NCBI RefSeq assembly: GCF_006345805.1
Contig: NW_021826444.1
Coordinates: 1-13,014 of the forward strand
Length of the DNA stretch: 13,014 nucleotides
Direction of reading: 5' to 3'
DNA from: Octopus sinensis
Taxonomy: Eukaryota
Shown here: positions 4,560-13,014 of the stretch, piece by piece
How the letters are laid out: each line of letters starts with the position of its first letter
Numbering within the stretch: position 1 is the first letter of the stretch
The notes under the pieces: model-generated
The model's database searches: none
What the model was told of the DNA's origin: nothing
Seen by the model: only the letters and a program-made list of their open reading frames with translations
Position numbers and translations under genes: made by a program

Positions 4560-5135
4560 AACAAAGAAAAATAAGAAGCATTAATAATCTCTTGGGTGAA
4601 TGCAGTAAGCTAGCACAAAAAGAGTGTAATACAAGGTATGGGCGTAATGATAAAAGGTTGTTGCTGAGTGTGTGACTTCGAAAGTGTTATGAACATGAAC
4701 GAGGTTACTGTGACTCGGTATATGTATTACTGAATTTCAGGGGACTTCTATATACAAACTGACGATACAACTGAAGCAAGAAGACCAGTTATGATTATAG
4801 AGGGGAAAATAAACAGTGTAAGATCATACACATTGCCATATCATATGATAAAAGAGAGGATGCAAGATAAATTGAAAAAAATTTATTGAAATATATCAAG
4901 ACCTAGCCAAAAAGTTCAAGATATTTTGGAAGTCTAAGAGTACAATTATTCCTGTGGTAATTGGTGCCTTTGCTACAACGCCCAATCCGCTACATAAACA
5001 GCTGTTGAGAAATACAATCCTGTATTCTACAAGAATCATAAAACAGATTCTTGACATGAGGAGACTTTTTGCCACCAAATTTCAAGATAACATCTCATGC
5101 CAGCTAATAAAATTAAGATGTAATCGGTGAGGAAT
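4560..5135 (+). mobile_element. 5'-truncated R4/Dong-type retrotransposon relic 2 (end of CCHC knuckle, RLE domain, 3' UTR)
   Basis: Peptide blocks in changing frames are SINNLLGECSKLAQKECNTR (cf. E..NH.LS.CSKLAQKEYKRRHD), DFYIQTDDTTEARRPVMII (cf. WDF.IQTD..I.ARRPD.I), KQCKIIHIAISYDKR (cf. C.IID.A.P.D), YQDLAKKFKIFWKSKSTIIPVVIGAFATTP and LRNTILYSTRIIKQILDM. It is preceded by (GAT)n at 4521-4559 and followed by (AAT)/(AAC)n. Confidence 0.88.
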
Positions 5136-9495: not shown

Positions 9496-9878
9496 CTAGC
9501 AGTATCGCCCGGCTTTGCTCAGGTTTGTAAGGGAAATAACTATAAAGCATTTTTAGAGAGTTATAGCAAAAAATAGCAAAAAAATGGAAAAAAATGATGC
9601 TAAATTTTTGTTTGATAGTTAAAAAAGGTGGAGTTGCGTCCCCTACACAGTTTGTGGTTTGTGTTCCTGATTCTCGACCCCATGTCGAATTTATCGATTT
9701 TTTCAGAACTGGGGGAACTTTTCAAAATTTTCGCTGCGTTAGTTTTGAATTATGACATTGGGCTATGTGTGTGTCAAGTTTCATCAGAATCGGTTGAAAG
9801 CCGTGGTCAGGGTGAGGTTACAAGCAAACAGACACACAGAAACACGCACAGACAAACTGCCGTTTATATAGAGAGAGA
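9496..9878 (-). mobile_element. Non-autonomous Helitron (383 bp), both termini intact
   Basis: The minus strand begins A|TCTCTCTCTATATAAACGGC and ends ...cctgagcaaagccgggcgatactgCTAG|T. It shows 5' TC, 3' CTAG, a GC-rich subterminal hairpin (9508-9523) 8 nt from CTAG, insertion between A and T, and no TSD. A (CTGT)-like microsatellite and aaccgatt..atgaaa follow the 5' end, as in Lep1-type Helitrons. Confidence 0.85.
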
Positions 9879-10589: not shown

Positions 10590-10797
10590 TGATTTCAAAT
10601 TCTGGCACAAGGCCAGAAATTCTGGAGGAGTGGAGAAGTCGATTCCCTCGACTCCAGTTCTCAACAGGTACTTATTTTATTGAAAGGACGAAAGACAAAG
10701 TCGACATCGGCGGAATTTGAACTCAAATCATAAAGACTGACGAAAATGGCGCCAAACATTTTTTTCCCGGTGTGCTAACGATTCCTCCAACTCGCCG
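10590..10797 (-). mobile_element. Older, diverged SINE related to family A with a different 3' tail
   Basis: Contains ggtacttatttt..gaaaggacgaaagacaaagtcgacatcggcggaatttgaactca...gtgctaacgatt...ctcgccg, homologous to about 1445-1610. Its tail (atttcaaattctggcacaaggccagaaatt) differs from that of the younger copies. Confidence 0.82.
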
Positions 10798-10811
10798 ACT
10801 GATAGATATTA

Positions 10812-10902
10812 ATCTGAAATTTAAGCACAAGACTAGCACTTTCGAGGGAGGGGCTAAATCGATTATATCGACCTCTTTGTTCAACTGGTAATTTCTTTAT
10901 GT
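10812..10902 (-). mobile_element. Partial second old family-A-related SINE (3' part), interrupted by the young SINE dimer
   Basis: aaatttaagcacaagactagcactttcg...aatcgattatatcgacc...tcaactggta parallels about 10597-10670. Confidence 0.65.
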
Positions 10903-10903
10903 G

Positions 10904-11315
10904 AAGGCGGCCAGGCAGCAGAAACGGTAGAACGCCGGGCGAAATGCTTAGCGGTATTTCGTCTGCCGCTACGTTCTGAGTTCAAATTCCGCCGAGGTCG
11001 ACTTTGCCTTTCATCCTTTCGGGGTCGATAAATTAAGTACCAGTTACGCACTGGGGTCGATATAATCGACTTAATCCGTCAGTCTGTCCTTGTTTGTCTC
11101 CTATGTTTTTCGCCCCTTGTGGGTAGAAATAGGTATTTCGTCTGCCGCTAGGTTCTGAGTTCAAATTCCGCCGAGGTCGACTTTGCCTTTCATCCTTTCG
11201 GGGTTGATTAAATAAGTACCAGTTACGCACTGGGGTCGATATAATCGACTTAATCCGTTTGCCTGTCCTTGTTTCTCCTCTCTGTGTTTAGCTCCTTGTG
11301 TGTAGTAAAGAAATA
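10904..11315 (+). mobile_element. Young family-A SINE as a head-to-tail dimer (full monomer plus 5'-truncated monomer)
   Basis: Monomer 1 spans 10904-11131 (B box gttcaaattcc at 10980-10990). Segment 10953-11131 is repeated at 11132-11315 (second B box at 11159-11169). Candidate TSD is ggtaatttctttatgt (10887-10902) / ggtacttactttatgt (11316-11331), matching at 14/16. Confidence 0.92.
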
Positions 11316-12647
11316 GGTACTTACTTTATGTTAGCGAGTCCCGTTCGAACCACCAGAGTGTGGTTTTTCGATTTTTTTTTGTATGGGCTTTATGAAAGGT
11401 ATGTATAGTGTAAAGTTATAACGCTGCTCATGTTAGATTTAATAAAGATATCATATTGGGGCTCTGCGATAAAAAGTAAAATGAGACTCGGGAGCCAACA
11501 TGTTAATAGCAAACCTAAACAAGGTTTTCGAAACACCCAAATATATTTATTTAAGACTCTGTACGTTCTGACTTCACAGATCTTAAAGTTCAGCTTTGCT
11601 TTTATCCTTACGCGACTGATAAAACAAATAAGAAAGTACTTGTCAATGCGTTATATCAGTTATATATGAATACCGTAATGTATAGTTATTGACCAGTGTT
11701 AGAACTTAATTTGATAAAAAGTAAATGAGTAGGCAGCTTGTCTCACTGTCAGCTCGGAGGCAGACATTTTTATTCACATAGCTGCTGTATGCTATGACGT
11801 CTTCCAAGAAATAAAATTGTGGTTCAGACTACATATTTCTGAAAACAATTTTGTCGTTTAATCTCATTTCAGATTCCATGTTGTTCAAATAAGATTGTCT
11901 ACAATAATATCCAAATCATCCTTGCTGTTTGAAACAACAGGGAAATATTTAAGGGACATTTAATTGATATTTTAACAGATCATTCATTTTGCTAGAGGCT
12001 TCTCTTGTATCTGATAGGATCTTACATAAGGTCACTTTATGACCCTAGCAAATTATAATCTGCAAATGTTTACATAAAGTTAGTACAGTAATCTACAAAA
12101 GAATCACATACTGAGCTTATCTTATCGAGGTAGATTTAACTGATTTCACTAACAGATTGATGTCCCGGGTAGAGGTTTCGCTTGTTGGGTGATAGATGCC
12201 ACACTTAAAAGTACTACATAAACGTAAAGAAACTGTAAACCATATACGAAGTGAACTTCAAGTGTTGAATTCTAATATCCGTAAAGGTCACATTAAAAGA
12301 TACGTACAGAGTTACATATAGATCATAATGTATTGAAAATATAGGAATACTTAGATTGACGTAACTGATTTTATCAGGTTGACTCGTAGGCGATATTCTT
12401 TCACTACCTGTAATTCATGGATTAAGAGTGATTGTATTACAGTAATCAACTTACCGATGAAAATTTTACTCAACAATGTTATATTCAATGAAAGCAAGCT
12501 GGTTTCTTTTTCAAGGAAACCTTTAATGACAGGTGTTTAATCCCATATGTCCTTTTGTTTATAAAACGCTAAATTGTGGTTGAGAGAGAGTTGTTTGTTG
12601 TTCTCAGTAGGTCGAACAATCGCGTAGCACTTCGTGAACAACAATGT

Positions 12648-12659
12648 TGTGTGTGTGTG

Positions 12660-12689
<30 letters not shown>
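12648..12689. repeat. (TG)n(TA)n microsatellite adjoining the palindromic element
   Basis: Directly visible. Confidence 0.95.
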
Positions 12690-12693
<4 letters not shown>

Positions 12694-12741
12694 AAACAAG
12701 TCAAGATAGAAAATGCTAAAATAATTTTATAAAGAACATCT

Positions 12742-12778
12742 CAGTACCGGTTTCGATCATTTGAGACCTTTTCAACTG
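12742..12778 (-). ncRNA. Putative minimal type I hammerhead ribozyme (U3-A8 variant core)
   Basis: Minus-strand RNA reads CAG [helix I] UUGAAAA [core] GGUC-ucaaau-GAUC [helix II] GAAA CCGG UA [helix III palindrome ACCGGU, GUA cleavage triplet] CUG [helix I]. The predicted cut lies between 12745 and 12744. Confidence 0.7.
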
Positions 12779-12934
12779 TAACAATTAAAACATTAAATTT
12801 AGAAAAATTAAAAGAAAAGTTTTTTTAAAAGAATATTTACATAGTGTTCAATATGAACACTATATGAACACTATACAAATATTCTTTTAAAACATTTTCT
12901 TTTAATTTTTCTAAATTTAATGTTTTAATTGTTA

Positions 12935-12971
12935 TAGTTGAAAAGGTATTAAATGATCGAAACCGGTACTG
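12935..12971 (+). ncRNA. Second putative minimal hammerhead ribozyme copy (slightly decayed)
   Basis: Plus-strand RNA reads UAG UUGAAAA GGU-auuaaaug-AUC GAAA CCGG UA CUG. The core is identical to the other copy, but helix II is reduced to 3 bp and helix I has a U-G pair. The predicted cut is after 12968. Confidence 0.6.
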
Positions 12972-13014
12972 AAATATTCTTTATAAAATTACTTTAGCAT
13001 TTTCTATCTTGACT

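Follow-up and report, generated by a model that had tools for sequence, protein, structure and literature searches.

The last 316 bases of this contig form an inverted repeat, and each arm carries a motif that reads as a minimal hammerhead ribozyme, one on each strand. This raises the question of how two such motifs came to lie back to back, and whether they still function as ribozymes. The window analysed here is the entire contig of 13,014 bases, from a 2.72-Gb genome that is rich in microsatellites. With a probability of a little under 0.9, we consider the palindrome to be a short Penelope-like element (PLE) insertion made of two back-to-back 5'-truncated 3' ends, each with the hammerhead of its family; the intact motif likely self-cleaves as a dimer, and both copies in the window are predicted to be inactive.

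The terminal palindrome and its two motifs

Sequence comparison placed the arms of the repeat at 12699-12839 and 12874-13014, with 89% complementarity. The features of the region are as follows.

12663..12689, no strand: (TA)n microsatellite, likely the insertion target; arms of the family meet an AT run likewise
12690..12851, minus strand: left arm, a 5'-truncated PLE 3' end (pLTR), 92-96% identical to 29 other loci
12742..12778, minus strand: left-arm hammerhead motif with U3-A8 core, read from the sequence
Parts of the minus motif: helix I 5' strand 12778-12776; core U3-A9 12775-12769; helix II 12768-12755; G12-A14 12754-12752; helix III palindrome (6 nt) 12751-12746; A17 12745; predicted cut 12745/12744; helix I 3' strand 12744-12742
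12851..12875, no strand: inversion junction with an 11-nt tandem duplication (TRF period 11, 2.3 copies)
12852..13014, plus strand: right arm, a second, inverted 5'-truncated copy of the same PLE end, stopping at the contig end at 13014
12935..12971, plus strand: right-arm hammerhead motif with U3-A8 core, read from the sequence
Parts of the plus motif: helix I 12935-12937; core 12938-12944; helix II 12945-12958; A17 12968; predicted cut 12968/12969

In each arm the order is helix I, UUGAAAA, helix II, GAAA, palindrome, GUA and helix I', which matches the motif order and both cut sites claimed in an earlier, sequence-only reading of this DNA. Both arms have GUA as the cut triplet (NUH) and a Watson-Crick 3-8 pair (U3-A8), and G5, G12, A13 and A14 are present. 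The left-arm helix II is 4 bp long, one pair being G-U through mutation; in the right arm an A-G mismatch leaves helix II with three pairs, and helix I contains a U-G. One helix II change is common to both window copies and is found in 0 of the 27 other arms of the closest subfamily.

An alignment of the arms over 152 columns shows 9 substitutions and one 2-nt gap between them, and two changes common to both that are absent from the 27 other arms of the nearest subfamily. Together these differences and shared changes indicate a single source for both arms, followed by drift, and the two motifs are one repeat end met twice, not independent occurrences. The left arm adjoins the (TA)n tract directly at its 3' boundary and has no tail. 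At the junction the arms are only about 10 nt apart, which leaves no space for a promoter. None of the short-read contigs bridges this junction, all of them breaking at the microsatellite; the inverted join therefore rests on the present assembly.

No recognisable gene adjoins the palindrome, as judged by Pfam and a genome copy search of the flank. The region 11350-12600 was considered as a PLE open reading frame and rejected, having no Pfam match in the three minus frames read through stops and only a single copy in the genome. Within it, 11700-12600 is single-copy sequence with no Pfam match in the three minus frames, and 12300-12640 is present in three DNA runs. Elsewhere in the window, 1380-1610, 10906-11315 and, in part, 10590-10900 are copies of an abundant repeat, one of them a 179-nt tandem; the repeat is common in the other loci, and we take it to be SINE-like. 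An 84-residue stretch at 4876-5130 (plus strand) is presumably like the C-terminal restriction-like endonuclease of R4/Dong-type LINEs, and about 9530-9870 lies a stretch that we take to resemble a non-autonomous Helitron-type repeat.

At 12776-12830 (minus strand), and in family copies, the helix I 5' strand is a YAG preceded by a long run rich in U, resembling a 3' splice site, and in Penelope of D. virilis the intron end is located at helix I (PMC4209133, in part). No strong splice donor was seen, and one guessed donor gave 0 exact spliced-junction matches in the genome. The U-rich 5' flank belongs to the published consensus of PLE hammerheads (same source), and the AG is absent from four aligned distant homologues. 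The odds of a splice acceptor overlapping helix I are low.

The element family and its inverted pairs

Exact matches to the motif pattern of the family number 2,271 in the genome and matches to a wider pattern 3,420, with 0 in each reversed control, so the motif exceeds chance. Of 896 candidates in a search with the left arm, 40 were scored, giving 45 matches; the 29 other loci compared keep their 92-96% identity over the arm and end at the AT run. Three pattern-matched loci run upstream into a GIY-YIG frame. Among 20 further stretches, L033 and L037 have frames of 748 and 637 residues that contain both RT and GIY-YIG, and the arm sequence terminates RT/GIY-YIG elements at L033, L037 and L040. 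At L033 the arm end lies 766 nt downstream of the stop of the 748-residue frame, while in L040, whose pLTRs are in direct orientation, 4,325 nt separate the two motifs and the 5' one lies 123 nt upstream of the ATG. Because the same end is found on these three elements, the window arms are the final 160 bases or so of a PLE, and the Penelope-like origin suggested from the letters of the window is borne out.

The RT domain (PF00078) is found at E 5.5e-8, above the cut-off. GIY-YIG (PF01541) is found at E 2.7e-4 and 21.6 bits, just below the Pfam cut-off of 22.6, and many homologues carry PF01541. The translations of L033, L036 and L037 have a C-x4-C-xx-C linker ahead of the endonuclease; a CX2-5CxxC linker is described as a mark of Neptune and Nematis PLEs (PMC8557442). 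We identify the family from its sequence as an EN+ PLE with a Neptune/Nematis-type Cys linker. Its named protein relatives come from bivalve molluscs; a scan of a genome-contig set found no relatives. Seven close PLE protein relatives (P0031, P0043, P0054, P0098, P0102, P0111 and P0120) are filed as bacterial gill symbionts of bivalves, and they are likely bivalve host DNA in those assemblies. None of the available contigs is recorded as RNA; contigs of the family are present in one possibly-RNA run, which cannot reveal strand, ends or locus.

The arrangement in the window recurs across the family. Among the first 100 matches listed, 42 motifs sit in minus-then-plus pairs, and 21 of the 25 neighbours closer than 6 kb have this orientation, as in the window, with three direct and one convergent. 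We examined by script a 30-nt tail in 23 inverted loci besides the window, which were selected as pairs and describe pairs rather than their frequency: exactly one arm carries it in 18, both in three and neither in two. The tail sequence is the stretch between the 5' pLTR and the ATG. In 17 of the 23 loci no other locus's arm beats the partner arm, and for the window pair none of 97 other arms is closer than the partner, the best of them being tied with it. Single arms occur at 44 of 69 loci, with inner truncation points that differ between loci. At L003, unlike most pairs, the host flank is inverted together with the element and both arms have the tail. Copies of PLEs that are 5'-truncated and inverted, with a one-sided tail, are standard (PMC8557442, PMC2377424), and opposite-strand hammerhead pairs 100-700 bp apart are known from PLEs of Schistosoma (Cervera and De la Pena 2014, PMC4209133). 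On sequence grounds, the inverted pair is the usual product of PLE insertion, seen across the family. The earlier proposal of one ribozyme per strand holds to the extent that each strand has one sense motif; however, the layout is a by-product of PLE integration, and both copies are predicted not to fold.

We propose that at integration the endonuclease of the element would nick the (TA)n tract, and two cDNAs would be primed close to the AT-rich boundary of the RNA. Both would stop after about 160 nt and then join 5' to 5', which would put one sense motif on each strand. In a published model, two pLTR motifs cut out a unit-length RNA, which may circularise (PMC4209133); in a full element of the present family, following this model, the 5' and 3' pLTR motifs would pair through the palindromic helix III and release unit-length RNA. 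Of 65 arms picked by the core pattern alone, 62 continue beyond the predicted cut site, and 42 meet an AT run 55-56 nt past it; copies overall run 55-90 nt past. The RT template thus cannot have been a cut linear monomer, but would be either an uncut tandem read-through or a re-ligated circular RNA. As a tentative and rather speculative extension, the hammerheads may cut the transcript and rejoin it into a circle on which the RT primes twice, about 30 nt apart, giving outward arms that extend across the ligated cut site, one of them tailed, with the inverted arms silencing new copies as double-stranded RNA. If this were true, the near-intact frames and near-identical arms would allow a direct test of hammerheads and circular RNA in retrotransposition, and of whether U3-A8 tunes cleavage.

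The hammerhead fold and the state of the window copies

Support for the fold comes mainly from comparison between lineages. A metagenome scan gave 28 loci, in nine of which the sequence extends 180 nt or more beyond the match. In five of these nine distant homologues a C3-G8 motif follows 121-202 nt downstream, its helix III laid out in the same way (one motif is common to two of the five), and U3-A8 occurs in none of the nine. In an alignment of 13 rows that includes four distant homologues, 93.5% of the cells are paired against 65.8% when shuffled (0/500) and 23-43% in slid controls; the rows were hand-picked by core pattern and are related, and the shuffle counts are not probabilities. Eight of ten pairs have double changes, and the 3-8 pair is UA in nine rows and CG in four. 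The core columns are invariant while the helices change in sequence, among homologues with 41-47% protein identity. Covariation across lineages therefore supports the hammerhead fold of the family, and the predicted folds of intact copies agree with the type I hammerhead originally suggested; the view of U3-A8 as a compensatory core pair is likewise supported by the UA and CG rows.

Within the genome the signal is smaller: over 19 rows, 87% of the cells are paired against 79.5% shuffled. The first pair of helix II (10.1-11.1) is G-C in young copies and A-U in older ones, and the third pair of helix I is broken in an older subfamily (four of 19 rows unpaired). A second PLE family (L134, L149, L151-L154, L156 and L157) has the U3-A8 core, a 5-6-bp helix I in which A-U replaces C-G, and a weak helix II closed by U-U, a closure that recurs in the distant homologues L165 and L168; seven of its eight loci have frame remnants, with protein identity up to 50%. 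We also looked for covariation of positions 3 and 8 inside the family, where three C3-G8 loci seemed promising. Among the matches listed there are 41 C3-A8 rows, 57 G8 rows (nine clearly from other families and about 48 family-like) and two or three doubles; single changes are common, and the doubles fit chance. The covariation anticipated for this motif is thus present for helices I and II and for the 3-8 pair between lineages, but positions 3 and 8 are uncoupled within the family.

With a generic canonical-core pattern there were 245 matches, fewer than the 257 of its control, so only recurrent families from it were used. One of these (L053-L068, for example L064 at G000:C1:182077512-182080540) is a second, canonical-core hammerhead family with head-to-tail units of about 355-360 nt; it accounts for 42 of the first 100 matches listed for the generic pattern, its first copy is often inverted as in PLE insertions, and it resembles a non-LTR retrozyme mobilised by the PLE machinery. 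L082-L106 belong to a set of 158 canonical-core motifs (control 1), old and diverse, of which 100 were listed; tblastn located no PLE frame closer than 1.5 kb. L147 and L148 combine the U3-A8 core and a 5-bp helix II with a poor helix I, and there is no PLE frame for about 2.5 kb around them. L136 and L150 were rejected as U3-A8 motifs, since by eye they are better read with a canonical core, a helix I of 5 bp and a long loop II (about 30 nt).

The two window copies fare less well than intact copies in fold predictions. The predicted probability of helix II is 0.06 in the left arm and 0.02 in the right, compared to 0.95-0.97 in intact family copies, and that of helix I in the left arm is 0.11. 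For dimers of intact representatives, the MFE structure in three of three cases is the domain-swapped helix I fold with a 6-bp palindromic helix III, in keeping with the suggestion that the palindromic helix III favours dimers. The window arms give other dimer folds, neither of which is a swapped-helix-I hammerhead. The two window copies are therefore predicted not to fold as hammerheads, and on these models the locus is most likely an inactive relic. As a hairpin, the whole palindrome has a computed energy of -182.7 kcal/mol (z -33). By geometry the antisense arm is transcribed first in either direction; in read-through RNA at the locus it would emerge first and would lock the sense motif in a long hairpin, and the masking by the antisense arm that had been proposed is supported by this modelled stability.

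The strong hairpin and the sense motif on each strand could also suggest a working two-way device, with one ribozyme per direction of transcription under the control of the antisense arm. We find this barely credible: the same geometry is routine in the family and in other PLEs, helix II stability is lost in both copies and the arms are 9 substitutions apart, motifs on opposite strands cannot dimerise within one transcript, and no gene was recognised next to the palindrome. That the element is short and its inverted arms long would also suit a MITE or fold-back DNA transposon with terminal inverted repeats, a reading that can practically be set aside: the arms form the 3' end of an element that encodes RT, a linkage to the RT/GIY-YIG frame that already refutes it, and both the many single-arm loci (44 of 69) and the varying inner truncation points count against it. 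An assembly artefact such as a fold-back read would account for a palindrome that reaches the contig end exactly and whose junction is bridged by no short-read contig; but 9 substitutions with only one gap between the arms are, in our judgement, unlike the pattern of read errors, and inverted pairs just as short are embedded in chromosome-scale contigs (L041, L043, L048 and L049), making an artefact very unlikely.

A different objection concerns what the motif does in the family as a whole. It may chiefly give the RT a structural or protein-binding signal and cleave little, if at all, in vivo. The 62 of 65 arms that pass the predicted cut site fit this, since RNA cut to a linear monomer was not what was copied; run-on past the site is also predicted by a re-ligated circular template. 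Published minimal hammerheads of PLEs showed weak cleavage even in dimeric form, and their authors allow for other functions (PMC4209133); moreover, Naiad PLEs spread without canonical hammerheads (PMC8557442). On the other side, the 3-8 pair and every catalytic position of the core persist in spite of the turnover of the helix sequences, and we regard a mainly non-catalytic role as improbable. We therefore prefer an inverted pair of PLE ends whose family motif is a likely dimeric ribozyme.

Comparison with known systems

The locus itself is of little importance. Its family is more useful: what hammerheads do in PLEs is still a question (PMC8557442), and near-intact elements, age-graded subfamilies and natural core mutants are available here for testing it, so this young family is a usable test system. 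There is also a caution for annotation. In the window Rfam gave only a sub-threshold HH9 match (17.3 bits against a gathering threshold of 52, E 4.4), and in five other loci no hammerhead family at E 0.5. It was correctly suggested that CUGANGA-based searches would miss this variant: in this one animal genome more than 3,000 hammerhead motifs lie outside CUGANGA patterns and below the threshold of Rfam. The idea of a notable or overlooked variant is nevertheless not supported: in Schistosoma mansoni the U3-A8 core has its own published descriptor, with about 1,300 hits (Cervera and De la Pena 2014, PMC4209133), the only paper that we found on this core.

We found no description of the octopus family's hammerhead in the literature, the supplement of the 2014 paper, which lists other molluscs, having been searched in part. 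The words 'hammerhead' and 'ribozyme' are absent from a 2026 octopus repeat annotation.

The element is structurally no different from EN+ PLEs of the Neptune/Nematis type as described in the cited parts of Craig et al. 2021 (PMC8557442) and Schostak et al. 2008 (PMC2377424): RT followed by GIY-YIG, the CX2-5CxxC linker, partial tandems, an inverted 5'-truncated copy, a 30-40-bp tail at one end, and microsatellite targets. Non-LTR retrozymes resemble the octopus motif in being animal repeats with a type I hammerhead and a palindromic helix III, but they are head-to-tail non-coding tandems (PMC7229834; Li et al. 2026, 10.64898/2026.07.22.740005, both in part); the window palindrome joins two ends of a coding element in inverted orientation, and we rejected a retrozyme on these grounds.

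Among hammerheads of PLEs, those of Drosophila, rotifers, shrimp and mosquito likewise have a short helix I and a palindromic loop 3 that completes helix III in the dimer; they are described, in the sections of PMC4209133 cited here, with the canonical core, in contrast to the U3-A8 and the bulge-free helix II of the octopus family. The closest parallel in the core is given by the pLTR hammerheads of Cercyon PLEs in S. mansoni, from the same source. Both are of type I with U3-A8 and lie in the pLTR, both occur mostly as single truncated copies and also as opposite-strand pairs about 100-700 bp apart, and both have U-rich 5' and AU-rich 3' flanks and G10.1-C11.1. The octopus family differs from Cercyon in its small palindromic helix III and in an element with the Neptune/Nematis-type Cys linker, and its helix II has 4 bp directly after A9, compared to 7-8 bp and an unpaired base after A9 in the Schistosoma-type minimal hammerhead. 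Because C3-G8 occurs in five of the nine distant homologues and U3-A8 in none, the U3-A8 of the octopus family may have arisen separately from that of Cercyon. Both the U3-A8 core and the opposite-strand layout are already published for PLEs (PMC4209133).
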